Shown in pieces: positions 4,849-64,000 of a stretch of 64,000 nt of DNA. The stretch is taken from positions 5,052-69,051 of the forward strand of contig CAZIFW010000002.1 of assembly GCA_964538275.1 (NCBI GenBank). Reading direction: 5' to 3'. Within the stretch, counting starts at the first letter, position 1. Every line of letters starts with the position of its first letter. Under the pieces are notes generated by a model. It saw only the letters and a list, made by a program, of their open reading frames with translations, ran no database searches and was not told the DNA's origin. The position numbers were made by a program, and so were the translations under genes. This stretch comes from an uncultured Bacteriovoracaceae bacterium. Its GTDB lineage: Bacteria > Bdellovibrionota > UBA2428.

Positions 4849-4864
4849 AGGCACAAGATTGGCA
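4849..4864 (+). promoter_or_regulatory. Possible sigma54 (-24/-12) promoter of the Cys-rich gene
   Basis: AGGCAC-AAGAT-TGGCA: GG-N10-GC spacing is right, with mismatches to TGGCAC-N5-TTGCW. Confidence 0.35.
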
Positions 4865-4922: not shown

Positions 4923-5471
4923 ATGAAAAAAGGATTTTTAAAAAATATATTGAGCTCTCTAGTCCTAACGCTAGGCACAATGTCTTTCAGTGCAGAAGCC
5001 AGAGATATTTTAATTATTGGCAATGGTGGAGGGGGCACAACTGTTGGCGATAGAGATGCCGCTTGTGGGCGAGCTTACGAACGTGCAGAGAATGATGCCT
5101 ACAACCAGTGTGCAAACCGAGATGGGGATCCGCTTTCTATGACTCAAGGTGGTTGTAGTTGTAGACGCAAACCCGGTTCTCGCGATGATTACAATTGTGA
5201 CGCAACTGTGCGATTAACATGTGAAGTTGCTTGTCGTCCGCAAGTGACTCAAATTGCTGGCACGGGATTGGGCTTTGATTTCAACCGCAGTGTTGCATGT
5301 GATGATGCTTTTAGACGCGCTGAAGATGACACGCAGTGGAGTTGCTCACGCCGTGGTGGCTATGTTGTGGATACACAAGAACAGAGTTGTAATTGTAGAC
5401 GCTTGAGTGGTGGAGACTATGAATGTCGTTCAAATGTAACCTCTATGTGTGAACTTCAAAGTTGTCGCTAA
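4923..5471 (+). CDS. Secreted Cys-rich protein with two tandem 6-Cys domains, function unknown
   Basis: GAGGAG RBS; signal peptide ending AEA; two C-x14-C-x14-CxC-x9/11-C-x7-C units; paralog at 48749. Confidence 0.88.
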   Translation: MKKGFLKNILSSLVLTLGTMSFSAEARDILIIGNGGGGTTVGDRDAACGRAYERAENDAYNQCANRDGDPLSMTQGGCSCRRKPGSRDDYNCDATVRLTCEVACRPQVTQIAGTGLGFDFNRSVACDDAFRRAEDDTQWSCSRRGGYVVDTQEQSCNCRRLSGGDYECRSNVTSMCELQSCR

Positions 5472-15658: not shown

Positions 15659-18340
15659 TTATTGTGGAGAAGAAAGAGTTCCAAAGTTTATAAGTAAGGG
15701 CGTATTCTGTTTTTCTGCTGCATTGACGTTACCCGTTCTAAAGTTTTGTTTTGAACCCCAACAGTACAATGCTCCAGAAGTTGTAAGTGCACACACATGC
15801 TTATCTCCCACAGCAACTTGATCAAAGTCTATAGAGGGACTTACGGGGGTAGGTACTGTAATAGGAGTTGTATTGGCAATTGCACCGTTTCCTACTTGCC
15901 CATAATCTTTAGATCCCCAGCAATATAATTTTTTTGTAGTGCTAATAGCACACGTTGTTTGTTGATTGGGAGTAGCATGGTTACCGCCAACAGAAATTTT
16001 TTCAAACTCAACACCCTCTGGATTGATAGCATCTGCTGTAGGTTTAAAGAGACTTGTAGTGGTTCCTGTTCCTAAAGCACCAAAGTTGTTCCATCCCCAA
16101 CAATAAACTTTGTTTGTATTTGTAATTCCACATGTATGAAAAGCGCCCGCAGCTAAATATCTAAAGAACTCGTCGGTTTCAAAGGGCTCGTTTGAGACAA
16201 TCCTTGGTGTAGCGTGGTTACCTTTATCGGCTGTAGTGGGAGTAATAGATTCTACAAAACCCAACATTCCTTTATCGTTACGACCCCAGCAAAGAGTTTT
16301 TGTATCTGTGCGACCATCTTTTTTTACAAGTGCACAAGTATGGCCATCGCCAGCAACAACTTGTACAAATTTTGTGTTACCAGCGCCAAATCCTGTTACG
16401 ACGTCAACGTTGATGTTTGTAGGTTGTGCAACTTTTTTAATTTTTGTATCTGCAATTGCAAGTTGTAGATTTTGGTTATCTCCCCAGCAAAAGAGTCGAT
16501 CATTTTCATCTATACCACATGTATGTCTACCACCTGCTGCAAGTTGCTTGAATTTATAAGTTGGGATCAGTTGAGGAGTGGCTGTGCTTCCACTTGTATT
16601 TGCAAGTTGATATTGAGTGTTGTCTCCCCAACAGTAAGCAAGTTTGTTTGCCATAATTCCGCAGCTATGTGTGCGACCCGCTGTAACTTTTAAGAAGTCG
16701 CTGTTTGTACTTCCTTTTGTAATTCTAAGAGGTGCTTGTACGTCTTTAGGCTTTCCAGTTGCATCTTGATAAATTGTTGAAGTTCCTGCCTGCCCAAGCG
16801 TACCCGCTCCCCAGCAAAATGCACTGGAATTTGCTACAACACAGGTGTGACCAGCGCCAGCAGCGAGTTCGCTTCCGAATGAGCTCAATGGAGAATGAGT
16901 AATGGTTTGTTCTCTAGGTAATTCTTCATTTCCGTTAAACTGTGTAAGTTTGATTGTTCTCAAGCCATTAGCATCGTCGGATAATGGGGTAAATTTAACT
17001 GAAAGATTAAATGTTCCAGTATTGTTACAAGGAGTTTCTGAAACCGTGTTCGGAAGAACCCCTATGCTATCGGAGGATAGCTTAACGTTAAAACCTGGAA
17101 TACAGGTTCCGGAAGCAATTGCAGTTTGAGAACTAATAGTACCCGTAGGAGCTGTTATTGTAAAAGTTGGCAATTCGGAATCTTTGTAAACTTTCCAACT
17201 TGCACGAGCTGGAGTTTGACTTTCGTTGCCTGCACGGTCTACAGCTTTTACAAAAAAGTAATAAGTTGTATTGAGTTTAAGATCAGGGCTAATATTCAAG
17301 CTAAGATTGTTATTGTTTGAAGTCTGAGTCCAAGTTGCTTGAGCATTTCCATTTATATTTTCACTGATGTAATACAAGTAATGGCTAATCCCAGATCCAC
17401 CTGTATTGTCAGTCGCAGTCCAGCTAATGGGAGGAGATGCTTTCAGATGAGTGCTGACTGCTTCAAGTCTTAAATCGGTTATATTATTAGGGGCAATTGT
17501 ATCAATTGTGTACGATGCTATCTCTTTGCATGAAGTCGTGAATGATCCTACTCCAAAACCTTTGGCAAATATTTTTATTGGAGACGTTGATTGAGTGAGG
17601 CTTAGTGCGACTCCTGTGCTTGATTCGTCTCTAGATAGTTTTGTTGTAATAGCTTGAGAATCTTGTTCGCAAGCACAAGTGCTAGTGTTGCAGCTATCGG
17701 TACCTCTAAAGAGTTGAACTTTGTCTACGTCCTCGTTGTTAATTTGTAGTTTAATCAACGGGTTTGAAACATTTCCAGCAAATAAGGAATTAGTTTTCCA
17801 ATCACCTGCAGAAGGATTTGCTTTAGTTGAAAAAGCTAAAAAATTTATAGGAGAATTGATGTTATGTGCGTAGGTGTATTTTTCTATACATTCAGAAAGA
17901 CTATTATCCGATTTGCGTGTTTTAAGGTAAATTTTAATACGAGTGTTGCTACTCATGGTCGATACATCGAGTTCAAGGCCTGTATTTTTTAGAAGAGCCG
18001 CATCAATACCATCATTTGGATCAATAACAGTTCCATTTTTAAGAGAGGCTAGGTTTGAGCACCCATTAATATAGACAAATACTTTTCTCACATTAGAGGC
18101 AACGGTAGCAGATATTTTTGGATAAAAACTACTTGCAGGGTTTAGAGTACTTCCAGTGGGACTAATGATCGGATTGCTAATTCCTGTGTTGTCGGTATCA
18201 ATGGGGTCATCGTCAACGGAATCCCCAGGATCGTTATCCCCTTCAGTGACAGTCAGTCCTTTCTCACCAAAAGAAGATTTTTGAAAACAACTTGTGAGAA
18301 GAAAAGACGAAAACAACAATGCAAATAGGTGTAAACCCAT
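15659..18340 (-). CDS. Large lipoprotein with FN3/Ig-like domains and a C-terminal 7-blade RCC1 propeller
   Basis: Lipobox LTSC; FN3-like YYFFVKAVDRAGNES; seven (A/V)G..HTC....CWG.N..GQL-type repeats. Confidence 0.88.
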   Translation of the reverse strand: MGLHLFALLFSSFLLTSCFQKSSFGEKGLTVTEGDNDPGDSVDDDPIDTDNTGISNPIISPTGSTLNPASSFYPKISATVASNVRKVFVYINGCSNLASLKNGTVIDPNDGIDAALLKNTGLELDVSTMSSNTRIKIYLKTRKSDNSLSECIEKYTYAHNINSPINFLAFSTKANPSAGDWKTNSLFAGNVSNPLIKLQINNEDVDKVQLFRGTDSCNTSTCACEQDSQAITTKLSRDESSTGVALSLTQSTSPIKIFAKGFGVGSFTTSCKEIASYTIDTIAPNNITDLRLEAVSTHLKASPPISWTATDNTGGSGISHYLYYISENINGNAQATWTQTSNNNNLSLNISPDLKLNTTYYFFVKAVDRAGNESQTPARASWKVYKDSELPTFTITAPTGTISSQTAIASGTCIPGFNVKLSSDSIGVLPNTVSETPCNNTGTFNLSVKFTPLSDDANGLRTIKLTQFNGNEELPREQTITHSPLSSFGSELAAGAGHTCVVANSSAFCWGAGTLGQAGTSTIYQDATGKPKDVQAPLRITKGSTNSDFLKVTAGRTHSCGIMANKLAYCWGDNTQYQLANTSGSTATPQLIPTYKFKQLAAGGRHTCGIDENDRLFCWGDNQNLQLAIADTKIKKVAQPTNINVDVVTGFGAGNTKFVQVVAGDGHTCALVKKDGRTDTKTLCWGRNDKGMLGFVESITPTTADKGNHATPRIVSNEPFETDEFFRYLAAGAFHTCGITNTNKVYCWGWNNFGALGTGTTTSLFKPTADAINPEGVEFEKISVGGNHATPNQQTTCAISTTKKLYCWGSKDYGQVGNGAIANTTPITVPTPVSPSIDFDQVAVGDKHVCALTTSGALYCWGSKQNFRTGNVNAAEKQNTPLLINFGTLSSPQ

Positions 18341-33316: not shown

Positions 33317-33334
33317 ATGCACGCTTTGTGCCAA
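33317..33334 (-). promoter_or_regulatory. Sigma54 (-24/-12) promoter
   Basis: Minus strand TTGGCAC-AAAGC-GTGCAT; the predicted TSS lies only a few nt before ATG 33304. Confidence 0.65.
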
Positions 33335-37842: not shown

Positions 37843-37958
37843 GTGGGAAAAAAGCTACTAAGGCAGCAAGTCTATTGGCAATTCAAATTCTCACTGTAAA
37901 TTTAAGCCCTACATGTAGCGTCTTATGACGCCGGAAGACGTTAAAAATAATCAGATGG

Positions 37959-51988: not shown

Positions 51989-52567
51989 ATGCTTTCCAAT
52001 TCACTCAAAACTTTGTGTTTTATAAGCGCTCTGCAGCTTTTTGCGTCTGATATTCATTCAGACAGCATTATCAAAGAACGTATAGATTCATTAGTCGGCG
52101 ACTACCAAGTCATTGGTGGCGAAGTATACAAAAACGAAATTAAGCTAAGTGCTTCTGAAGCCATAGAAGACGCGAATGTTGCGCCCAGTCTTGGAGTGAA
52201 GGCGATTAGCCTAAAAGCGCGTGCTGAAGATACTTATTCCATAGAGTTCACTTTGCCGAATGATGCAAAAGCAAAATGGAAAATGACAGTTGGCGAATTT
52301 ACTCAAGGCGATGAAGCTGTGGGGATTGATGGTCATACACTTCGCTTGGGGGCCTTTGAAGGAAGCCAAGTGGGTTGGCGTAAAGTTAATTTCGGAATTA
52401 TTTCTAGTACTCAAGCTCGAGTTGTTGAAACACTTAGCTTTGAAGAAAAAGAAGGGACACTTCTTTTTAGTCAGCACAAAGTTTTTTACGAATATCCCAT
52501 TGGAACTTCTTACAAGGTTCCACGCAAACTTACGTTAGAGTTTGTATATAAACTCAAGAAACTTTAA
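51989..52567 (+). CDS. Secreted hypothetical protein
   Basis: Signal-like MLSNSLKTLCFISALQLFA; stop overlaps the pilQ stop. Start uncertain. Confidence 0.65.
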   Translation: MLSNSLKTLCFISALQLFASDIHSDSIIKERIDSLVGDYQVIGGEVYKNEIKLSASEAIEDANVAPSLGVKAISLKARAEDTYSIEFTLPNDAKAKWKMTVGEFTQGDEAVGIDGHTLRLGAFEGSQVGWRKVNFGIISSTQARVVETLSFEEKEGTLLFSQHKVFYEYPIGTSYKVPRKLTLEFVYKLKKL

Positions 52568-54570
52568 CGAGCATCTTCTAAGCTTTGTTGTAGAACCTGT
52601 GCTCGCTCTCGGTTCAAGATACGAGGTGAGATAAACATCAAGAGCTCGCGCTCGTTTTCAATGGTGCTATCAGATGAAGTAAAGAGACGTCCTAAGATAG
52701 GAATCTTTCTCACGAATGGCCACCCTGCTTCGCCTTTGTTGTCCTCTTTAATGTAAACACCACCTACAACTACGGTTGCTCCAGATTCGATCAAGGTCTG
52801 AGTGCTAATTTCACGTTTGTTAACGTTGATGTTGTCTCCCACAAGTGGAGCTAAGCTGTCGCGGGTAAGAACAAGATCCAAAAGAATGTTCTCATCGTTT
52901 GTTACTTGTGGAGTTACCGTTAAGCTCAGTGCCGCTTTAACTGTTTTAGTAGTTCCAGAGTTTTCTCCTTCGCCGGTGTTAAGTAAAAGCGTGAGTTCTG
53001 TACCGTCTACGATACTCGCTTTTTTGTTGTTGAGTACCGTTAGACTAGGTCTTGAAAGTTCTTTTGCAACACCAAGACTTTCGTTGAATTTAACAACAGT
53101 ATCGATTTGCTGAATGGTTCCGTTCGGGTTGAGATACTGTCCGGCCGCACCACCTGCGCCACCCAGAAGAGAAAGGACTCCCGTTTGAGAAGAGGTTGAA
53201 GATGAGCCACCTGAGCTAGAGGATCCAGAAGATCCAAACACTCCACCACCAATTGAAAGAGTTCCACCACCTAGCTTGATTCCACCAATCGCGCTCCAGT
53301 TGATGCCGATGTCGCGACTGAATTCTTTTTGAGCTTGAATGATTCGAGCTTCGATATGAACCACGGGTGTTTGGCGATCGATGGCTTCAATGTAGCGGCG
53401 AATTCGTTGAATGTTCTTAGGAAGAGCCGTTACAACAATTGAGTTGGTTCGCTCATCAGAAACTACGTTTTCATTAAACTCTGGCTTTAGATATTTTGTG
53501 ATTTGAGGAATAACTTCAGAAGTTTTTGCATAGCTAAGAGGGAAGAGCTGGGTCGCTTTAGGAGCAAGCTTGTCTTCGTCTTCTTGAGCTTTGATGGAAT
53601 CTGCAATCTCTTGGCGAATTTTTGTTACTTGCATCACGCGGTAGGTGTTACCCATTTTTTGATAGCCCAAGTCTGCGTTGAGTAACACAAGCGCTAGGAC
53701 TTGGTCCCAAGGAACGCTTTTAACGTTCATTGAAATCTTTTTATCGGTTTCACCTACGAGTACAAAGTTACGCCCTGATACTTGAGAGATAAATTGAAGT
53801 ACATCGGGAATAGTGGCTTCTTTAGCGCGGAAGTTTACTTTGGTTCCAATGAAGTTTTGTTTGCCGTTTAGAGCAATGAGAGTTTCAAAGTTATCGGGAA
53901 TGTCGCTGTTGGCATTGTTGCGTGAGTTGTCTGCATAACCTTTGTTAAAAAAATCAACAAGGATTCGATTCCCTTCGCGACGTACAGAAGGTTCCGCCAT
54001 GGAACTCATGTTCATAACAACACGTGCGTTAGATCCAGAACCTGATTTGGCTTCATAAGCCTGAACTTGTTTCACTGGGCCGCCATATTCTTTGGCATCA
54101 ATTGCACCTTTAGAAACTAAGGGACCTAAATTTGTGTTGGCGAGATTTAAGGTGAATTGTTTGTTTTTGCTAGAACGCTCAGGACTGTAATCAACAATCT
54201 TAGAGGTTTGAATTTCAAAACGTGTTCTGTCTGAAAGTGAATAAATACGAATAGCAGAAAGTTCAGCATTGCCTGTGTTATTCGTTCCAGTAAGTGCAGT
54301 GTCGGGGCGAACATTGTTACCTGCAACGGGGAGATCTTCTAAAAGATCTGCTGTGTTTTGCGCAGGCAAAGCAGGGGTACTTGTAGCTGCCGCAGAAGAA
54401 GGTGCGGCAGATGTAGATCCTGCGGCTTCATCATCGGGAGCATAGAGATCTTCGTCGGAATCTTCTTTGACTGCGCTAACGTCATCCATGAGTTCTGTTT
54501 GCGCAACGAGAAAACTAGAAGCTGTTAAAAGTAGAAAAATCACCAATGCAAAATGAAATAAATTTCTCAT
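52564..54570 (-). CDS. pilQ: Type IV pilus secretin
   Basis: AMIN-like domain, VPWDQVL, PLSYAK, DERTNSIVV, VHIEARII, KIPILGRLF, ELLMFISPRI. Confidence 0.94.
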   Translation of the reverse strand: MRNLFHFALVIFLLLTASSFLVAQTELMDDVSAVKEDSDEDLYAPDDEAAGSTSAAPSSAAATSTPALPAQNTADLLEDLPVAGNNVRPDTALTGTNNTGNAELSAIRIYSLSDRTRFEIQTSKIVDYSPERSSKNKQFTLNLANTNLGPLVSKGAIDAKEYGGPVKQVQAYEAKSGSGSNARVVMNMSSMAEPSVRREGNRILVDFFNKGYADNSRNNANSDIPDNFETLIALNGKQNFIGTKVNFRAKEATIPDVLQFISQVSGRNFVLVGETDKKISMNVKSVPWDQVLALVLLNADLGYQKMGNTYRVMQVTKIRQEIADSIKAQEDEDKLAPKATQLFPLSYAKTSEVIPQITKYLKPEFNENVVSDERTNSIVVTALPKNIQRIRRYIEAIDRQTPVVHIEARIIQAQKEFSRDIGINWSAIGGIKLGGGTLSIGGGVFGSSGSSSSGGSSSTSSQTGVLSLLGGAGGAAGQYLNPNGTIQQIDTVVKFNESLGVAKELSRPSLTVLNNKKASIVDGTELTLLLNTGEGENSGTTKTVKAALSLTVTPQVTNDENILLDLVLTRDSLAPLVGDNINVNKREISTQTLIESGATVVVGGVYIKEDNKGEAGWPFVRKIPILGRLFTSSDSTIENERELLMFISPRILNRERAQVLQQSLEDAR

Positions 54571-54640
54571 GGATTACCCTTATTTAATTATAGGGGCATA
54601 GTGAGGAATAAAGCATGTACGCTATTTTTTTGGCGCATTG

Positions 54641-55060
54641 TTAGTCTGCAATTACGAGACTTGTGAAGTACGAACGAAGTTTACCTTGGTAATCTTTGTA
54701 TGCTTCTTTGACGACTATTTCGGAGTCATTGATTCGGTGAACTTTGCCATTGTTCTTACCTAGTTTATCGCCAACACGAACAATCTCAGTTTCTTTATTG
54801 GGAAGCATAATCATAGCGCGGGAACTTCCCATACCTGTCAATACAGCGACTAATTGAAAGCGAGTGACATCAAATGCCGTTAAGAGATTTTTGTTATTGC
54901 CGAGATCTGCAATAGGCTGAAACGGATCACGTTTTATTTTAGAAGGTTCAAAGTAGTAACTTTTATCATCTTTGGAACGTGGTTTAGGTTGCGCATCAAG
55001 AGTGTTTAAAGATAACAAGCTCAAGACTATGCAAACACTGAGAACTCGTTGAGTTTTCAT
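54641..55060 (-). CDS. pilP: Type IV pilus assembly protein PilP
   Basis: KRDPFQP, FQLVAVL, VRVGDKLGKNNGKV; position in the operon. Confidence 0.88.
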   Translation of the reverse strand: MKTQRVLSVCIVLSLLSLNTLDAQPKPRSKDDKSYYFEPSKIKRDPFQPIADLGNNKNLLTAFDVTRFQLVAVLTGMGSSRAMIMLPNKETEIVRVGDKLGKNNGKVHRINDSEIVVKEAYKDYQGKLRSYFTSLVIAD

Positions 55061-55725
55061 TGTTCACTGCTCCCTTGTCCAGCAGATGCACTAGAGTTCT
55101 GAGTATCCGTATTCGGTGTTGGATTAGTTGGGGCAGGCGCAGTTACAGGTGCGGGACGTGCATTTTCATCAAAGTAATAAGTAACAAGTACGGCTTCTGC
55201 AGTAACAATAGCGTTAGATCCTCTAAGTATTGGGTCTTTGAAGCTAACACTTTTTCCAGAAACAATGCGCGTAAGGTGAGCCACTTCATCTAGAAAACTC
55301 ATGATTTGTACAAAGCTGCCTTTAAGTTCAATTTTAAAAGGAGTTTCCATCAACACTCCATTTAAGGCAGCAGTGCCGGGTTCAAAGCGCGTAAATTCTA
55401 CCCCTACGCGGTCTGAAATTTCTGCAAGATTGCTTAAGAGTCCAGGGGTGTCACTTGATTTAGGAAGCTTTTCTAAAGCAGAGTTAAAGTTTTCTGCAAG
55501 GCTTTGGAGTTCTTGAAAGCGAGTATCGCGTTCTTTTTCAAATGTTTCAGCTTTGCGGTTTTCCGATTGAACAGCAGCAAGCTGTTCCTTAGTCGTTTCA
55601 AGTTGAGCTTTCATAGGAAGAAAGATGTCTTTCTGCCAAGTATCGTAGGAAACGTAATAATAAATTCCAATCAAAACTACCCAGAGTACAAAGGGAAGGC
55701 GAATGAGCGCGCGTATTAAACCCAT
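55057..55725 (-). CDS. pilO: Type IV pilus assembly protein PilO
   Basis: N-terminal TM, coiled coil, LPKSSD.PGLL, GSFVQIMSFLDEV..L.RIV. Confidence 0.88.
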   Translation of the reverse strand: MGLIRALIRLPFVLWVVLIGIYYYVSYDTWQKDIFLPMKAQLETTKEQLAAVQSENRKAETFEKERDTRFQELQSLAENFNSALEKLPKSSDTPGLLSNLAEISDRVGVEFTRFEPGTAALNGVLMETPFKIELKGSFVQIMSFLDEVAHLTRIVSGKSVSFKDPILRGSNAIVTAEAVLVTYYFDENARPAPVTAPAPTNPTPNTDTQNSSASAGQGSSEQ

Positions 55726-55728
55726 CTT

Positions 55729-56418
55729 TTATTCTCCTAACTTCGCCATAATTTGAAATTTACGAGAATTGGGTGGCACGTTAATCGCTCCAGGACTGGG
55801 CGATGCAAGTTCATTTCCAGGGACAAGCTCTAGGCGATCCAAAGTAGTAGAGGGAAAATAAACAGAAGCTTCTAACTTTTGAATAAAATCACTCACTGCT
55901 TGAGCATTGATAGCGTAACCTTTAAAGGTAGCGCTTGCGGATTGAGATTGGCCTGATGTGTTTGAGCTGGTTGTGGCGCTAATTTCGTTGAACCACATTT
56001 CTTTGGGCATCTCTACAGCGGCATATTCAAGTGCGCGGATGAGATAACTTCGATCAGTTTCTTGTTGAGACACTGCCTTAAGTTTTCCTTGAAGCTCATC
56101 CATACGGGTTTGATAACCACGCATTTCTTCTCCAATATTTCTAAGTTGACCCTTTTTACGATTCTCTTGAGCTAAACCTGTTTCGAGTTCACCGAGCTCA
56201 GCTTGAATGGTATTGAGGTCTTCTGTTTGTAAATGATCTAGAGCCACGTGCACACAGGCTGCAATTAAAACTAAACCGAATACGCGTAAAACGAGATTTA
56301 GGGAATCTCCTGAGCCTGCGGAGAAATTCAATTTAGGAGATGAAGGCGTGGGCGAAGAATTGGAGAGCCCACTGCTTTTCTTTGCTTTTAATTGATCGAG
56401 TAAGTTAATGCCGCCCAT
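55729..56418 (-). CDS. pilN: Type IV pilus assembly protein PilN
   Basis: INLL motif, TM, coiled coil, MPKEMWF, FKGYA, FIQKLEAS.YF. Start placed at ATG 56418. Confidence 0.85.
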   Translation of the reverse strand: MGGINLLDQLKAKKSSGLSNSSPTPSSPKLNFSAGSGDSLNLVLRVFGLVLIAACVHVALDHLQTEDLNTIQAELGELETGLAQENRKKGQLRNIGEEMRGYQTRMDELQGKLKAVSQQETDRSYLIRALEYAAVEMPKEMWFNEISATTSSNTSGQSQSASATFKGYAINAQAVSDFIQKLEASVYFPSTTLDRLELVPGNELASPSPGAINVPPNSRKFQIMAKLGE

Positions 56419-56422
56419 GTGC

Positions 56423-57481
56423 TTAAGCCTTCCTCGTTGTAAGTCCCGCAACTGTGAGCAAGCGAGGTGCCCAGTTGCTTAAAAATACGGGATCGATAGA
56501 TTTATTTTTTGTGTAAAAGAGTGAGTTCCAATCGAGCTTAATAACTTTAGGACCAATGCGATCTTGCATCACACTCTCCATCAATCCCGGAGTTAAAACG
56601 CCACCGCCAAAGAAACACCATTTTTGAATGAGCTCTCTGGAGGATTGGGAAACATATACATCTTCGCTTTGTTGAAGCTCAGCTTTCCAGCGATTCAATG
56701 CACCTTTAAGGGCATCAGCTGCTTCTTGAGGAATGTTTTTTCCATCATTCACTTTTATAGCTTCCGCGTCGCTGTGATTTAAACCCAAAGCGCGCGCAAG
56801 AGAATCTGTAAAAAAGTATCCACCCAAAGTAAATTCACGGAAGAACTCTACTTTGCCATTTTTCCATACGGATACGCGTGTTCCCAAAGCTCCAATATCT
56901 ACAAGTGCGACGCTTTCTCCCGCTGAAAAATGCAAGAGGTTGTTAGCTGCATCTGCAGTTGCAAGACTATCAAGATCAATAACTTTAACGTTTGCAGAAG
57001 CCTCAAGTAAAATTCCTTGTAGGTTTTCAACTTCTTGTCGTTGTGCTCCCACAAGCAAAACATCCCAACCCTTTGTTCCCGGAGGCGCGAGGGGAACGTT
57101 ATCCCCTTCGCCAATGACTTGGTGAGAAATTAAAACGTTTGAAATGTCTGTAGGAAAAACTTGCTCTGCTTCCCAGCGCACTTGTTGCGGAATTTCTTTA
57201 ACAGGAACCTTTGGCATAAGAATGCGCTTGGTAAGAATTCCTGAACCTCTAAATGATGTCGCAATAGAGGGTTTCTTTTTTCGAAGACCTGCAAATCCGC
57301 TGGCTATTTGATTGATTAAAATGTCGCGTTGAGGATAATCGCGCTCAGTAACTGCGCCTGCGGGTAAAGAAAGGCATGCAAGATTACTTACTTCGTAGCC
57401 TTTTTTTGTAAATGAGCCTTCGACAATTTTAATGGCACTCGAGCCGATGTCGACACCCAGAAGACGCGAACTAAATAGCAT
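56423..57481 (-). CDS. pilM: Type IV pilus assembly protein PilM
   Basis: LGVDIGSSAIK, VRWEAEQ, ALVDIGA, actin-like fold; first gene of MNOPQ. Confidence 0.92.
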   Translation of the reverse strand: MLFSSRLLGVDIGSSAIKIVEGSFTKKGYEVSNLACLSLPAGAVTERDYPQRDILINQIASGFAGLRKKKPSIATSFRGSGILTKRILMPKVPVKEIPQQVRWEAEQVFPTDISNVLISHQVIGEGDNVPLAPPGTKGWDVLLVGAQRQEVENLQGILLEASANVKVIDLDSLATADAANNLLHFSAGESVALVDIGALGTRVSVWKNGKVEFFREFTLGGYFFTDSLARALGLNHSDAEAIKVNDGKNIPQEAADALKGALNRWKAELQQSEDVYVSQSSRELIQKWCFFGGGVLTPGLMESVMQDRIGPKVIKLDWNSLFYTKNKSIDPVFLSNWAPRLLTVAGLTTRKA

Positions 57482-57526
57482 CTTGAACAGATTCCCCCAA
57501 TTATTAGTTTAGGTTAGGTCATTCAA

Positions 57527-58333
57527 TTATGTAACAGGGAAAAGAAGTATCTGAAGTTTTTTGAGTGTCCAAACAACAATCGCGCCCAAAGCTAGGAATG
57601 GGCCAAAGGGGATTGCTGTTTTTAAATCGCCCTTTTCTTTGAGCATTACTATCAATCCCACAATGAGTCCGGTGATAGAAGCTGTCAAAACTAAGACAGG
57701 TAGTCCACTCACTCCAAGCCAAGTTCCCAGCCAGCCCATCATTTTTACATCGCCAAAACCAAGACCTTCAATGCCTTTAATCTTTTCGTAGAACCAACCA
57801 ATTGAAAAGAAAACTCCAAAACCAAAAAGTCCGCCCAACAAGGCATCTGTCAAAGGAGCGTCGAATTTGAGCCAGTTGAAAAGCACAAGTGCAGCTGCAA
57901 CTGCCCAGTTTCCTAAACTGAAGCGATCAGGAATAATTCTAAATTCCAAGTCGATGAATGTTAGAACAACGAGAGTCCAGAAAAAATAAAGATCAAAGAA
58001 AAAGTTTACATGTGTTTGTAAGTCCACGGCCGGAGTCCATGCGTAGATAAGCCCTACAAAAACAAAAGAACATGCAACTAAGAGTTCGATGAGAGGATAA
58101 ACTATTGAAATAGGTTTTTTACATTTTCGGCACTTGCCGCCTAAGAAGAGGTAGCTAAGGACGGGAATGTTGTCGTACCAAAAAATCTTCTTCTTACATT
58201 TTGTGCAAAAACTGCGAGATTTAACTCTCATTCCAAGTGGGATATCGCGAGGAATTCGATATGCGGCCATCGCGCCAAAGGATCCAAAAAGTAAACCAAA
58301 AATAAAAAGGAGAATGAGTATTTCAAGTGTCAT
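57527..58333 (-). CDS. pilD: Prepilin peptidase/N-methyltransferase
   Basis: GSF, RSFCTKC, NIPVLSY, GKCRKC, IDL..RIIPD, GFGDVKM, PFGPFL. Confidence 0.95.
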   Translation of the reverse strand: MTLEILILLFIFGLLFGSFGAMAAYRIPRDIPLGMRVKSRSFCTKCKKKIFWYDNIPVLSYLFLGGKCRKCKKPISIVYPLIELLVACSFVFVGLIYAWTPAVDLQTHVNFFFDLYFFWTLVVLTFIDLEFRIIPDRFSLGNWAVAAALVLFNWLKFDAPLTDALLGGLFGFGVFFSIGWFYEKIKGIEGLGFGDVKMMGWLGTWLGVSGLPVLVLTASITGLIVGLIVMLKEKGDLKTAIPFGPFLALGAIVVWTLKKLQILLFPVT

Positions 58334-58336
58334 AAT

Positions 58337-59107
58337 CTATAAATCCATCGTTTCCATTCTTGTTTTTGAGACAAACAAGAATATAAAGCTCCACGCAGCC
58401 GTGAGTCCAAGCATGACCAGTATCTGATCCCAACTAAAAGGATCTTGAAAGCCTACAAAGATTTTTATGTCCCACCATTCAAGTGGAGGTAGGAAATTTA
58501 AAACAAAAAGCACAACTTTATACAGAAGTTTAGTGACACCACTAAAGTTAGATTCCAAAACCAAAATTTCAAGATAACTCTTGCTGTGTAAGAGAGCTAC
58601 TACGGCAAGTACTGCAAACCAAGAAAGTAAGGGCTTGAGGTAAAGCGAAAAGAGAAGGGCAAGCGAGAGTATAACAAGACTTTCAGTGAAGAGAAGAAAT
58701 TGAGCTTGTAAGAGTATAGCGGGCGGAAAATTTCCAGCAGCACTCAAGGATCCTAGGCTTAAGAGTATTGTCCAAATACAAATTGAAATACCCAGCATAG
58801 CGCCAATTCCTAACCAATTTGCAATGATCCATTCACTTCTAGAAACTTTAAGAGTTAATACAAAAGAAAGTGTTTTGCGTTGAAGTTCTTCGTGAAACAG
58901 ATGTGACCCTAAATATGTCGAAAGTAAAACAGTTACGATGTAACAAAAGCTCAAACTTAAATCCCAGTAGATTTTATCGGGCCGCACATAAGATGAAAAA
59001 GCGAGGAAAAGTGCAAAAGGAAAAAACGCAGTGGCTGCAGCGACAATGCCCCAACCAAGTTTCTGTTTAAGAAGTAGCTTTAATCGAAAGAAAGCTAGAT
59101 TGATCAT
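58337..59107 (-). CDS. ABC transporter permease (PilI-like)
   Basis: About 6 TM; EELQRKTLSFVLT..VSR motif; start at ATG 59107 overlaps the ATPase stop. Confidence 0.8.
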   Translation of the reverse strand: MINLAFFRLKLLLKQKLGWGIVAAATAFFPFALFLAFSSYVRPDKIYWDLSLSFCYIVTVLLSTYLGSHLFHEELQRKTLSFVLTLKVSRSEWIIANWLGIGAMLGISICIWTILLSLGSLSAAGNFPPAILLQAQFLLFTESLVILSLALLFSLYLKPLLSWFAVLAVVALLHSKSYLEILVLESNFSGVTKLLYKVVLFVLNFLPPLEWWDIKIFVGFQDPFSWDQILVMLGLTAAWSFIFLFVSKTRMETMDL

Positions 59108-59799
59108 GTGAGCTGCTCTCTCCATTTATAGAGTTCGGGGAGAATTTTTTCTTTGGAGCCACTCTGAGCTAACTTTCCTTTATCGAGGACTAATACATGA
59201 TCAGCAAGAAATTCTACGTCACGCAGTGAGTGTGTAGAGATGAGCAAAGTCTTTTCAGCCTTGCGCCAATTGAGTAAAAAATGTCTAAGCCATTCTTGAG
59301 CGCGAAAATCTAAACCCGTCATAGGTTCATCAAGAATTAAAAAGCTTGGATTGCGAATGAGAAGACATGCGAGTCCGAGTCTTTGAGTCATGCCTTTGCT
59401 GAATTCTCCCACTCGACTTGTTGCGCGCTCGGAGAGTCCAACAGTTGTGAGAATTTCTTTAAGTTTTTCTCGAGGAGTATGATCTTCCACACAAAGAGAA
59501 AGTATTTCAAGTGGAGTCATCTCCGGCCAGAAGGCTACAAGTTCGGGCAAGAAGGCTACGCGGCTCTTGGCTTCAAGGCTTCCGGGGGCAGCTGTTTCGA
59601 AATAAGTGATTTTTCCTTCATTTGGAAAAATCAAGCCCATTAAGCATTTTAATAAAGTAGATTTTCCCGCGCCATTGGCTCCGACTAACGCGATGCTCTG
59701 TCCGGAAAATATTTCAAAACTCACATCTTCTAAAACCGGTTTAGAAAAAATTTTTGTGAGATTCTCAACTTTTAGAGAGCTCGAAGTTTTTGTAGACAT
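59104..59799 (-). CDS. ABC transporter ATPase (PilH-like)
   Basis: [32 protein letters not shown]. Confidence 0.92.
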
Positions 59800-59868
59800 T
59801 TTTATTTAGTGTAGGGCGCTTATTAAAATTCGTTAAATTTATTAGTGTATTGGAATTGCGCAGCGCAA

Positions 59869-59884
59869 TGGCACTGAATTTGCT
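59869..59884 (+). promoter_or_regulatory. Consensus sigma54 promoter upstream of recA
   Basis: TGGCAC-TGAAT-TTGCT, an exact match to TGGCAC-N5-TTGCW, 55 bp before the ATG. Confidence 0.75.
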
Positions 59885-59939
59885 GGACACAAATATGGCC
59901 CTGACTCAAAGTTATGAACCAGGCCAAGAAGGAGTACGA

Positions 59940-61094
59940 ATGAACAAAGTACAAGAAACCCAAACAACAACGAATTCAAAGCAAACGGAAAAGCAAAAAG
60001 CACTTGAGCTAGCGCTTTCCACCATTCAAAAACAATTCGGAAAAGGTGCGATCATGCGTCTTGGTGCCGACTCTCTGGCTTTATCTGAGGGGATTCCTGT
60101 ATTTTCTACAGGCTCTGTAGGATTGGATATCGCTTTAGGTATTGGCGGTCTTCCTAAGGGGAGAATTATCGAAGTTTTTGGTCCTGAATCTTCTGGTAAG
60201 ACAACACTCTTTCTTCAAGCAGCAGCTGAGTGTCAAAAACGCGGAGGCACGGTGGCGTTCATCGATGCTGAGCATGCATTGGATGTACAGTATGCAAGAA
60301 AACTTGGGCTTAAAGTAGAAGATGTTATTATTTCTCAGCCGGACACTGGCGAACAAGCGCTCGAGATTACAGACATGCTTGTGCGTTCCGGTAGCGTAGA
60401 TTTTATTATCGTAGACTCAGTAGCCGCTCTTGTTCCTCGCGCGGAAATCGAAGGCGAAATGGGAGACTCTCACATGGGTCTTCAAGCGCGTTTGATGAGC
60501 CAAGCTTTAAGAAAGCTCACAGGTTCTATTAACCGCAGTCATTGCACAGTGGGATTCATCAACCAATTGCGTATGAAAATTGGTGTTATGTTTGGAAACC
60601 CTGAAACAACTACGGGCGGAAACGCACTTAAGTTTTATGCTTCTATTCGTCTAGATATTCGCCGTATTTCTGCACTTAAAGAAGGTGAAGAAGTTACGGG
60701 TTCACGCGTACGTGTGAAAGTTGTTAAGAACAAACTCGCAGCTCCGTTCAAGCAAGCTGAGTTTGACGTAGATCATGGTCAGGGCGTGAACAGATGGGGT
60801 GAAATTCTAGACCTCGCAACGGCTAAAAACATCATTGATAAGAGTGGGTCTTGGTACAGCTACAAAGGTGAGCGCATGGGCCAAGGTCGCGATCAGTCTG
60901 TGACTTACTTAAAAGAAAATGCTCCTTTAATGGAAGAGCTCACAAAACTTGTTTTCGAAGCACATGGACTTAAAGTCCCTGCTGGTTCTATAAAAGGACC
61001 TGTTGCGGCGGAAGCAGAAGAAGCTCCTGCTAAAGAGAAAGAAAAAGAAGCGGTAAAAGGCTCGGCTCTTAAGAGTAAGGCTGGAAACGCATAA
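59940..61094 (+). CDS. recA: Recombinase RecA
   Basis: [61 protein letters not shown] supports ATG 59940. Confidence 0.99.
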
Positions 61095-61108
61095 TTTAAG
61101 GAGTTGAA

Positions 61109-61768
61109 GTGGATTTATTGGGCGGTGAATTTTTAAGAAAGTTACTTCTTATGGGCCCGCCCTTTATTCTAAGCTTGAGCGTTCACGAATGGGCGCATGC
61201 TTGGAGTGCAAATAAACTCGGAGATCCCACGGCTAAGAATATGGGGCGTATGACCCTAGATCCTATGGCCCATATTAGCTGGATTGGGACAGTACTAATT
61301 CCTGCAATTTCGATCGCAATTGGGGGTTTTTTCTTTGGTTGGGCTAAGCCCGTACCCGTAGATACTCGTTATTTTAAAAAGCCTCGTGCTGGAATGGCCT
61401 ATGTGGCCGCTGCCGGACCTATTTCAAATATCGTTTTAGCTTTTATTTTGAGTGTAGTGATTGGGTTACTTTATAACGGCAATTACTCCCTTGAAGGAGC
61501 AAGCGCTTTCAAGCAATCCGGAATGATGATGCTGCAATTCGCAGTACAAATTAACGTGGCGTTGGCTGTGTTTAATATGGTTCCTCTGCCTCCATTGGAT
61601 GGGTCTCGTATTTTACAGGGATTGGTACCTCGTGAAATGGCCAATAAAATTGATCAGGCCGCACCCATGATGGAAATGCTCTTATTTGTGCTCATTTTTA
61701 CAGGTATTTTTAGGTTTTTAATGATCCCTATGGGTATTTTGATGAACCTCTATCAGCGACTTTGGTAA
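61109..61768 (+). CDS. Site-2 protease (M50)
   Basis: HEWAH, GWAKPVPV, AAGPISN, FNMVPLPPLDG. Confidence 0.93.
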   Translation: MDLLGGEFLRKLLLMGPPFILSLSVHEWAHAWSANKLGDPTAKNMGRMTLDPMAHISWIGTVLIPAISIAIGGFFFGWAKPVPVDTRYFKKPRAGMAYVAAAGPISNIVLAFILSVVIGLLYNGNYSLEGASAFKQSGMMMLQFAVQINVALAVFNMVPLPPLDGSRILQGLVPREMANKIDQAAPMMEMLLFVLIFTGIFRFLMIPMGILMNLYQRLW

Positions 61769-61816
61769 TAAAGTTTTTTAGATTTCGACATTTTGGGCTT
61801 CTGAAATAGTCTCAAT

Positions 61817-62611
61817 GTGCTAAATTTTTTAGTTATGGATCGACATGCTGTGGTTTTAGATTGTCGGGTGCAAATCCCGCACTTTGAGGGGCCTTTGGAC
61901 CTGCTCTTGCACCTCATAAAATCGCATGAGTTTGATATCCGCACCCTTTCTATTTCTCAAATCACTAAACAATACCTTTTGTATTTGGATTACATGCGTG
62001 AGCTCAATTTGGATATGGCCAGTGAATATCTCGTCATGGCCGCAACTCTTACGCACCTAAAAAGCCAAGTCATTCTTCCTCAGGATCTTGTGGCAGGTGA
62101 AATGGGCGCTGATCCTCGTGCTCAATTGATCCGAAAACTGCTTGAATTAAAATGTTACAAAGAACTCGCAAGCTCTCTTGAAAGCAGACCTCGTTTAGGT
62201 CGCGATGTGTTTTTGTCTAAGAACACAGGGCTTGAAGAGATTGAAGATACACTTGAACCCGAAGTTTCTCTCACCAACCCATTCCAACTGATTGAAGCTT
62301 ACAAGTTTATGATCAAACGTCGTGATGGGGTGGTTCATAAAGTTTTTGAAGATTCCATACCTGTAAGTTCTTGCTTAAAGAATATTGTAGAAAGACTTAA
62401 AACGGAGGAAGAGATTCCTTTTGCAACTTTATTGCCAAATCCGTCTAAGACCACACATATGATTTCAAACTTCTTGGCCACTTTGGAATTGGCAAAAATT
62501 CAAATCAGTGGATTTAGACAAGATGAGACCTTTGGGCCAATCACTATTTACAGAAAGAAAAGCATTGAAGAACTCAATGGCTTAGACAAGCTAGACTTGA
62601 GTTGGGCGTAG
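61817..62611 (+). CDS. scpA: Segregation and condensation protein A
   Basis: FEGPLDLLLHLI, ASEYLVMAATL..LKS, FLATLEL. Confidence 0.94.
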   Translation: MLNFLVMDRHAVVLDCRVQIPHFEGPLDLLLHLIKSHEFDIRTLSISQITKQYLLYLDYMRELNLDMASEYLVMAATLTHLKSQVILPQDLVAGEMGADPRAQLIRKLLELKCYKELASSLESRPRLGRDVFLSKNTGLEEIEDTLEPEVSLTNPFQLIEAYKFMIKRRDGVVHKVFEDSIPVSSCLKNIVERLKTEEEIPFATLLPNPSKTTHMISNFLATLELAKIQISGFRQDETFGPITIYRKKSIEELNGLDKLDLSWA

Positions 62612-62613
62612 TC

Positions 62614-63522
62614 ATGAAGAAAAAGAAAAACAAAAAAGAAACCATTGAAGAAGCCGTTCTTGTAGAAGAGCAAGTATCAGAAGAAGTTCTGGTTGAAAGT
62701 TCTGAGACAATTGAAGAGTCTGTAACTCTTGAGTTAAGCGCAGAAGAAAACGCTGCTGATCAAGAAGTAGAAGCTACTGAGGCTGAGGAAGCTCCATCCG
62801 TTGAGGCTTCTGGAAAAACACTTATTACTGATATTAACGAAATTGAAAGTGCTGTTTTAGCACTTATATTTGCAAGCCCAGTTGCATTGAGTACTAAAAA
62901 GCTTAAAAACTTACTCTTTCACGGTGGCTATGACACTGCTCAGTTAGATTTAGTTTTCGAATCACTCTCGCAGTCTTTTGAGGAAAAAGGTATTCAGCTT
63001 GCAAAAGTTGCTGGCGGCTATCAGCTCAGAAGTAATCCAAAATACGCAGAGATTGTTCAAAAACTAGTTGAAGAAAAACCACAACGACTTTCTAAGTCTG
63101 CACTCGAAGTGTTGGCTATTGTTGCTTACAAGCAACCTATTATCCGCGCCGATATTGACCACGTGAGAGGCACAGACTCAGGCCACTTACTAAAGAGCCT
63201 TTTAGAGAAAAACTTGGTGCGAACTGAGGGACACAAAGAAAGTGCAGGCCGCCCATTACTGTACGGAACCACTCCTTATTTCTTAGAAGTATTCACTTTG
63301 AGTTCTTTGGATGATCTTCCTGCGATTGAAGACTTTGAGCGCGAGCTTAAAGATGTAGATACCGAAGCAGGAGAGGGTGGGCTTGTTATGAATGCAGATC
63401 CACTCTTTGGATCTTTGGACGCAAATGCTGATCGAGGAGATTATGATGCACCTGCTGAAGATCAAGTAGAAGCTCCTGACTTTGGCGAAGCTGAGCGCGC
63501 TTTAGAAGAAACGACACATTAA
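62614..63522 (+). CDS. scpB: Segregation and condensation protein B with acidic extensions
   Basis: VAGGYQLR, LSKSALEVLAIVAYKQPI.RADI..VRG, GRPLLYGTT..FL. Confidence 0.94.
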   Translation: MKKKKNKKETIEEAVLVEEQVSEEVLVESSETIEESVTLELSAEENAADQEVEATEAEEAPSVEASGKTLITDINEIESAVLALIFASPVALSTKKLKNLLFHGGYDTAQLDLVFESLSQSFEEKGIQLAKVAGGYQLRSNPKYAEIVQKLVEEKPQRLSKSALEVLAIVAYKQPIIRADIDHVRGTDSGHLLKSLLEKNLVRTEGHKESAGRPLLYGTTPYFLEVFTLSSLDDLPAIEDFERELKDVDTEAGEGGLVMNADPLFGSLDANADRGDYDAPAEDQVEAPDFGEAERALEETTH

Positions 63523-63543
63523 TTGCCTGAAATTTTATAAGTT

Positions 63544-64000
63544 ATGCAACATTTTGTGCTTAAGCTTGGGACTCGAGTTGTAAGTGACGAAAATGGATCT
63601 ATTGCAACTGAACGCCTAAATTCAATAGTCTCTTCTTGTGCCAAGCTTTGGAAAGAGAAAAAACGCTTTGCCATAGTGTCTTCGGGTGCAATTGGCTTAG
63701 GGCGAAGTGTATTGGGTCTTAAAAAAAGCTTGGAGCTATCAGATAAACAGGCCAGCGCAGCTGTGGGACAAGGTTTACTTATGCGCTACTACTTTGATGC
63801 ATTTGCTGCGCATGAAATTGTAGTGGCTCAAGTTTTAGTTACAGCAGAAGATTTTTCTAAAAGAGAAAATTTTCAAAATTTGAAACGAACACTCGAACGC
63901 TTGTTTGAGTTGAATGTCATTCCAATTTTGAACGAAAATGACTGCATAGCGACGAAAGAGATTGATGATCTTTCTAAAAAGAAGAGTTTTGGAGACAATG
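63544..64000 (+). CDS. proB: Glutamate 5-kinase, 3'-truncated by the window edge
   Basis: Not in the ORF track: MQHFVLKLGT, IVSSGAIGLG, ASAAVGQG, AQVLVT, IPILNEND, SFGDN. Confidence 0.93.
   Translation, partial: MQHFVLKLGTRVVSDENGSIATERLNSIVSSCAKLWKEKKRFAIVSSGAIGLGRSVLGLKKSLELSDKQASAAVGQGLLMRYYFDAFAAHEIVVAQVLVTAEDFSKRENFQNLKRTLERLFELNVIPILNENDCIATKEIDDLSKKKSFGDN

Follow-up and report, generated by a model that had tools for sequence, protein, structure and literature searches.

The window, by which we mean the whole 64,000-nt stretch of DNA that was analysed, comes from an uncultured bacterium of predatory type in the family Bacteriovoracaceae and has a G+C content of about 40% and ordinary chromosomal content that includes hut genes, a cell-wall synthesis cluster, uvrD, the type IV pilus genes pilD and pilMNO-Q, recA and scpAB. 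DNA identical to it occurs in bioreactor and wastewater metagenome runs. A protein of 892 residues made mostly of RCC1-like repeats, which is unusual for bacteria, is encoded on the minus strand at 15659-18340 (Pfam PF25390, 275 bits).

The recA gene (Table 1) encodes a protein for which an exact look-up of the sequence returned no record. Assemblies of uncultured Bdellovibrionota and Bacteriovoracaceae are the nearest genomes, and the RecA identity amounts to 98% for the public protein P0001, 88% in the related locus L081 and 83-85% in several other genomes. The start codon at 59940 is fixed by the proteins P0002 and P0004, both of which begin MNK(S/T)Q. Downstream of recA, a gene for a small protease of the site-2-protease (S2P) type begins 14 nt after the recA stop codon and is followed 48 nt further on by scpA. 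The recA-S2P order is kept in L081-L084, L321-L324 and L244, and the full order recA-S2P-scpA-scpB recurs in many relatives. On the other side of recA, a divergent series of minus-strand genes begins with an ABC-transporter ATPase; between pilO and pilQ of this series lies a short stretch without annotation. The genes pilD, ABC-2 permease and ABC ATPase are also divergent from recA in L081, L083, L322 and L323, in which the whole pilD/ABC/recA/S2P/scpAB neighbourhood is conserved.

Table 1. Features at and around recA (window positions, except where a related locus is named)
Feature	Position	Strand	Remarks
Gene series divergent from recA, in transcription order ABC ATPase, ABC-2 permease, pilD (prepilin peptidase), pilM, pilN, pilO, ... 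pilQ (secretin)	52564-59799	-	
ABC-transporter ATPase	59104-59799	-	divergent from recA; matches many ABC ATPase families
Intergenic region	59800-59939		140 nt, between the divergent ABC-transporter ATPase gene and recA
Perfect 13-bp palindrome TTGCGCAGCGCAA	59856-59868		abuts the -24 element; single exact copy in the window
Sigma-54 (RpoN) type -24/-12 element TGGCACTGAATTTGCT	59869-59884	+	TGGCAC-tgaat-TTGCT; exact consensus match
GGACAC	59885-59890	+	directly 3' of the -12 element, in the region expected to melt
Predicted transcription start	59894-59896	+	from sigma-54 geometry, about 12 nt 3' of GC
Stem-loop in the predicted 45-nt 5' UTR	59896-59926	+	fold -10.5 kcal/mol, z -1.65
Ribosome-binding site AAGGAG	59929-59934	+	5 nt before the ATG; conserved in L081 and L321
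recA	59940-61094	+	384 aa; TIGR02012, 525.9 bits against a cutoff of 325.3, residues 17-338
Small S2P-like membrane metalloprotease (Peptidase_M50)	61109-61768	+	Pfam PF02163, E 1e-16
scpA (condensin subunit)	61817-62611	+	NF000995, E 4e-50
scpB	62602-63522	+	overlaps the end of scpA; TIGR00281, 135 bits against a cutoff of 89
Exact CCATAC-N4-GTATGG	L325:2402-2417; L326:2235-2250; L329:2267-2282; L389:2355-2370		upstream of recA

Sigma-54 promoters have the consensus TGGCAC-N5-TTGCW and are activated by AAA+ enhancer-binding proteins, for instance at glnAp2, pspA and nifH. In the intergenic DNA upstream of recA, a sequence oriented towards this gene, as a sigma-54 promoter has to be placed, matches all 11 defined positions of this consensus. 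Its GG (59870-59871) and GC (59882-59883) are separated by 10 nt, which is the sigma-54 spacing. The end of the motif and the recA ATG are separated by exactly 55 nt (59885-59939), and the divergent gene is only about 70 nt from the -24 box. A preliminary description of this DNA had reported an exact TGGCAC-N5-TTGCT 55 bp before the recA ATG, and both the position and the distance were confirmed by the scan. At the level of sequence, the element thus shows every feature by which a sigma-54 promoter is recognized.

When both strands were scanned, this was the sole exact copy of TGGCAC-N5-TTGCW in the 64-kb window. The chance expectation for such a match in the window is 0.12, and because at least one was obtained in 11 of 100 shuffles, a single exact match in 64 kb is not significant alone. 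The significance of the element comes from its place, its orientation and its conservation in relatives.

The place of the element has a second possible meaning, as the window has an open frame between 59850 and 59940 and the motif might be part of the coding region for a RecA with a longer N-terminus, starting from the ATG at 59868. P0001 (407 aa) was gene-called in this way, with an extension of 23 residues (MALNLLDT...). Such a coding role is made very unlikely by a stop codon in the same frame inside the motif spacer of L081 and a TAG in the same frame in L321, by the leader length, which is 55 nt in the window and 56 nt in L081 so that the frame is not kept, and by the strong AAGGAG before the ATG at 59940, whereas none precedes 59868. 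The proteins P0002 and P0004, which begin MNK, also argue against it. The public start of P0001, which overlaps the -24 box, is almost certainly mis-called.

Relatives were reached via the neighbouring S2P gene, the RecA C-terminus, exact look-ups of the nearest RecA proteins and the N-terminal signature KALELAL, these queries being used as a full-length RecA query was swamped by universal RecA peptides. The sole member of the phylum returned by the full-length query, L001, was without the motif. A forward GG-N10-GC motif was found 52-180 nt before recA in about 20 of 24 distinct relatives whose RecA is at least 70% identical; these related genomes are not independent samples, and they fall into at least 6-7 groups with mutually unalignable flanks. 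The family consensus is TGGC[A/C]Y-N5-[T/C/G]TGC[T/A], and the sequence surrounding it cannot be aligned.

In clade A, which comprises the window, L081 and L321, the element reads CGGCACTGAATTTGCT in L081 and TGGCATTGATTTTGCT in L321, and in these two relatives it lies 56-60 nt before the ATG. In clade B (L082/L088, L083, L084 and L334) it reads TGGCATTT(G/C)ATTTGCT and lies 106-109 nt before the ATG, and it is the only block that can be aligned between the two clades. In more distant members of the family were observed TGGCCT-N5-TTGCT (L322, L392), CGGCCC-N5-TTGCT (L323), TGGCCC-N5-(C/G)TGCA (L327, L244, L389, L358, L345, L352), TGGCGC-N5-GTGCT (L331/L348), TGGCTC-N5-TTGCA (L328/L380), AGGCAC-N5-ATGCT (L335) and a degenerate TGGTAT-N5-CTGCA (L324), so that many relatives carry weaker variants such as TGGCCC-N5-CTGCA. 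Among 19 sites placed in an anchored alignment, none lacked the C that follows GG or the T that precedes GC (19/19 each), the first T was kept in 16/19, and the sixth position was always a pyrimidine, while spacer and flanks varied. Two of these loci have peculiarities of their own. In L244, three tandem copies of GAGTTTAGGCAA (L244:1-41) stand immediately upstream of the sigma-54-like element of recA and could be a protein-binding array. L392, a contig that bears the label candidate division WWE3, has the same motif type (TGGCCTCAGTCTTGCT), and its RecA shares 76% identity with that of the window; the contig probably belongs to the Bacteriovoracaceae and was assigned to the wrong genome bin.

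The motif was not found on the opposite strand in any recA upstream region of the group (0 matches), and within the group no convincing motif was seen in L325, L326, L329 and L384. Beyond it, where RecA identity falls below about 70%, Bdellovibrio, Pseudobdellovibrio, Halobacteriovorax and marine genomes labelled Bacteriovoracaceae were without the motif. As a control, the same threshold was applied upstream of recA in 150 cases where RecA is less than 70% identical, which gave 5 forward and 3 reverse matches, and the strict pattern TGGC-N8-TGCW was matched in 3/148 on each strand; the control rate in unrelated recA upstream regions is thus 2-3% on either strand. Further outgroups gave one match in about 55.

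The same pattern was observed at the level of strains. Three other metagenome runs yielded contigs with 93-95% identity to the window, which were taken as strain variants. They differ from it in the intergenic DNA at 59816, 59817, 59845, 59846, 59848 and 59849, and downstream at 59891-59893, 59900, 59918 and 59919. No difference was found from 59850 to 59890, a stretch that holds the palindrome TTGCGCAGCGCAA, the sigma-54 element and GGACAC. Across genomes as well as strains, the -24 and -12 boxes are therefore kept while their flanks diverge, which is the conservation expected of a sigma-54 promoter.

These comparisons bear on the idea that the element is a chance match without function. Exact matches do arise in shuffled windows, as mentioned above, and an isolated exact match, TGGCACTGTAATTGCA, was found about 118-150 nt upstream of recA in L219, a Nitrospirae MAG, while the other sampled Nitrospirota recA loci were without it; the L219 site is either chance or an independent case. 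Chance is nevertheless strongly disfavoured for the window, as about 20 related genomes keep the element between flanks that cannot be aligned, compared with 2-3% of the controls, as the strain variants leave it intact but differ in bases next to it, and as its position and orientation are right. Conservation upstream of recA in relatives had been proposed as a check in the preliminary description; it was positive in many lineages with unalignable intergenic DNA, and it is on this comparative evidence that the core of the earlier reading, a sigma-54 promoter, is strongly supported. Even if the sigma-54 prediction fails, the conserved TGGC-N8-TGC block remains a genuine regulatory element of recA and calls for an explanation.

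The classical recA promoter, found in E. coli and most bacteria, is a sigma-70 promoter repressed by LexA as part of the SOS response, and recA is the standard textbook case of such control. The region upstream of recA in the window lacks the marks of such a promoter. A scan of 59300-61400 for sigma-70 -35/-10 pairs, which finds near-consensus pairs only, returned none against 2.5 expected. About ten published LexA-box types were searched with at most one mismatch in 59700-59960, and nothing was found besides one weak TTTG-N5-CAAA match that is not conserved in L081 or L321; the B. bacteriovorus LexA box TTAC-N3-GTAA was likewise absent near recA. These scans agree with the earlier remark that neither a clear sigma-70 pair nor a LexA box was visible. 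On sequence grounds, the recA region thus does not qualify as a LexA/sigma-70 SOS promoter.

A promoter of another type was observed in part of the group. Seven members carry upstream of recA the 16-bp palindrome CCATAC-N4-GTATGG or a one-mismatch variant of it, exact in L325, L326, L329 and L389 and with one mismatch in L323, L327 and L358. The exact palindrome occurs nowhere else among 411 loci, and with up to two mismatches it was found 19 times in 2.19 Mb of other loci; with up to one mismatch it is absent from 59700-59960 of the window. The palindrome of L326 and L329 fills the 16 nt that separate a -35-like from a -10-like hexamer (e.g. TTGACG-[palindrome]-TATGGT), and L325 and L389 show this layout with weaker hexamers. 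In the sequence TTGCAY-N16/17-TACAAT of L323 and L327, the -10 is overlapped by the palindrome. The palindrome matches none of the LexA-box types tested. It is probably the operator of a repressor, and the whole resembles a sigma-70 promoter under the control of such a repressor. Downstream of the motif in clade B, reading by eye gave a weak sigma-70-like pair, TTGAGA-N17-TAGTTT, and a second, sigma-70-like promoter is possible there.

Three arrangements are thus found in the family, namely the sigma-54 element alone in the clade of the window and most others, the element together with the palindrome promoter in L323, L327, L389 and L358, and the palindrome promoter alone in L325, L326 and L329. 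As some genomes have both promoters, the signal behind the sigma-54 input is probably a different one from that sensed at the operator. For the earlier suggestion that recA is activated developmentally and not only by SOS induction, these genomes give the one indirect hint that a signal other than damage may be involved.

The same arrangements lend themselves to a reading in which the conserved block is bound by the sigma-54 holoenzyme or another protein as a poised or occluding complex, or as an operator, and recA is transcribed from a weak or atypical sigma-70-family promoter. The genomes with both elements fit it, those with the palindrome promoter alone indicate that sigma-70 transcription of recA is used in the group, the sigma-70 scan would register only pairs close to the consensus, and the clade-A palindrome TTGCGCAGCGCAA at the upstream edge of the motif could be an operator. 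We hold this reading to be unlikely, as the conserved positions are exactly those that define a sigma-54 promoter (TGGC...TGC at fixed spacing) while spacer and flanks are free to vary, and as the site is asymmetric and always points towards recA. In addition, the sole AT-rich hexamer downstream that could serve as a sigma-70 -10 box, AAATAT (59891-59896), is destroyed in the strain variants and has no -35-like hexamer at the right distance.

We therefore favour, with a probability of about 0.7, the reading of 59869-59884 as a functional sigma-54 promoter of recA, which would probably be the main or only one in this bacterium. According to this model, sigma-54 RNA polymerase would bind GG at -24 and GC at -12 as a closed complex, which an AAA+ enhancer-binding activator would open using ATP. 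At sigma-54 promoters, transcription starts about 12 nt downstream of the GC dinucleotide. The recA transcript would then start near 59895 with a 45-nt leader containing a stem-loop and a strong ribosome-binding site, continue through recA and probably run on into the gene of the S2P-like protease and scpA-scpB. In such a system, recA would be gated by the signal of the activator and not by LexA derepression at a sigma-70 promoter. The binding of RpoN, the site at which transcription starts, the need for an activator, the length of the operon and the signal are all things that we infer here. In RNA runs, the recA reads found were conserved fragments from other organisms.

The sequences flanking the element are partly shared as well. 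The palindrome TTGCGCAGCGCAA is partly kept in L081 (TTGTGCAGCGCGA) and L321 (TGGCGCACCGCGA), is absent from clade B and has no substitution in the strain variants; it is possibly a regulator site or an extended upstream contact of the promoter. The GGACAC that follows the -12 element is the same in the window, L081 and L321, and most relatives have a G-rich run (GGG, AGG) at this place. In the leader, the shape of the stem-loop is kept with different stem letters in L081 (2755-2783; -16.1 kcal/mol, z -4.2) and L321 (56-80). As a predicted structure, it may stabilize the mRNA or affect translation; an Rfam search of the recA 5' region and intergenic DNA gave no match. As a candidate activator site, the direct repeat TTATT(T)AGTGTA in 59803-59852 was rejected, since L081 does not share it and the strain variants carry mutations in it. 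No upstream inverted repeat that could be an activator site was shared across the clades.

A signature search of the 64-kb window found no gene for rpoN or an enhancer-binding protein, and the GAFTGA/Walker-type activator signatures were absent from the window and the related loci scanned. The phylum and the class are known to have rpoN, which is bd0843 in B. bacteriovorus HD100 (PMC3464611) and has also been recorded for Bacteriovorax marinus SJ (PMC3526173). By analogy with these relatives, rpoN and an enhancer-binding protein are assumed to be present in the host genome.

How far the recA transcript would extend was suggested by the gene order. The genes for recA and the S2P-like protease are probably co-transcribed. 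A four-gene transcript recA-S2P-scpA-scpB is plausible because of the 14-nt gap, the recurrent gene order and the lack of any plus-strand terminator in a scan of 60900-64000. The proposal made earlier that S2P-scpAB might be activated along with recA is in keeping with these features, but the motif stays with recA when the genes are separated. In L331/L087 and L327, S2P-scpAB lie elsewhere while the motif remains before recA, and no sigma-54 motif was found upstream of the separated S2P gene. The element is therefore a feature of recA.

Compared with canonical sigma-54 promoters, the recA element is identical in core sequence, GG/GC spacing and upstream position, and the TGGC and TGC conserved in the family logo are the positions that sigma-54 contacts. 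What differs is the controlled gene, which here is recA, and the lineage-specific extras, namely the G-rich run after the -12 box and the GC-rich palindrome before the -24 box in clade A. A literature search found no published report of a sigma-54-dependent recA and none in descriptions of sigma-54 regulons. Judged by its sequence features, the element belongs to a standard promoter class; the gene that it precedes is paradigmatic and was not expected there, and the arrangement is kept throughout much of a bacterial family. Compared with the classical recA promoter, the gene is the same, but here there is neither a -35/-10 pair nor a LexA box, and activation by an ATPase would take the place of derepression through RecA-stimulated LexA cleavage.

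A parallel is offered by Bdellovibrio, in which recA is reportedly among the SOS genes without LexA repression. In B. bacteriovorus, LexA does not repress the canonical SOS genes, according to the title of Campoy et al. 2005 (J Bacteriol 187:5367; cited in PMC8565304), and if recA is among these genes, there would be a precedent for non-SOS control of recA in the phylum. The recA of the window belongs to the same phylum and is likewise without a local LexA box, whereas the sampled Bdellovibrio and Pseudobdellovibrio recA upstream regions lack the sigma-54 motif. From these comparisons, the sigma-54 motif appears as a solution specific to the Bacteriovoracaceae group.

Nucleic-acid repair has also been linked to sigma-54 elsewhere, as RtcR and sigma-54 control the rtcBA RNA-repair operon, which is SOS-induced in Salmonella (PMC9879122, PMC7790460). 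In both cases repair genes would stand under a sigma-54 promoter and a signal-sensing activator, with a connection to genotoxic stress. However, the genes are different, the activator RtcR is known and the induction of rtcBA is still RecA-dependent; no rtcR-like gene was seen near recA. The Myxococcus group was once classed together with the present one as Deltaproteobacteria. In Myxococcus xanthus, PexR is an enhancer-binding protein that controls peroxide-stress genes (PMC12754779). PexR would be a similar case of a stress response usually under sigma-70 regulators that was handed to an enhancer-binding-protein system, with the difference that both the stress and the genes are others.

If recA is sigma-54-dependent, an activator and its signal would be needed to make RecA at all, and the timing of DNA repair, recombination and RecA-dependent responses would be altered. 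This would give a concrete and testable answer to the question of what controls recA where Bdellovibrio SOS genes escape LexA repression. The three promoter arrangements in the family (sigma-54 only, both, operator/sigma-70 only) offer a natural series for the rewiring of an essential repair gene. A wider and much more tentative proposal is that recA of the Bacteriovoracaceae, in many members together with scpA and scpB, has moved from repressor/sigma-70 control of the SOS type to sigma-54 control by a signal-sensing activator. A signal of the life cycle or of growth, such as that of the replicative phase inside or on prey, might then switch on recombination, repair and chromosome handling, rather than DNA damage itself. 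If this were true, the relatives with both promoters would be evolutionary intermediates.

Other sigma-54-like sites were also seen in the window. A site on the minus strand at 56457-56472 was rejected for being too close to pilN, and another at 37865-37880 (minus strand) before uvrD for lacking GG. Only two others are plausibly placed. The first, AGGCACAAGATTGGCA, is found on the plus strand at 4849-4864 in intergenic DNA, 58 nt before an unannotated ORF of 182 aa (4923-5471). The second, TGGCACAAAGCGTGCA, is also intergenic and lies on the minus strand at 33318-33333, 13 nt before the ATG (33304) of a predicted lipoprotein, for which it would, as a promoter, produce an almost leaderless mRNA.
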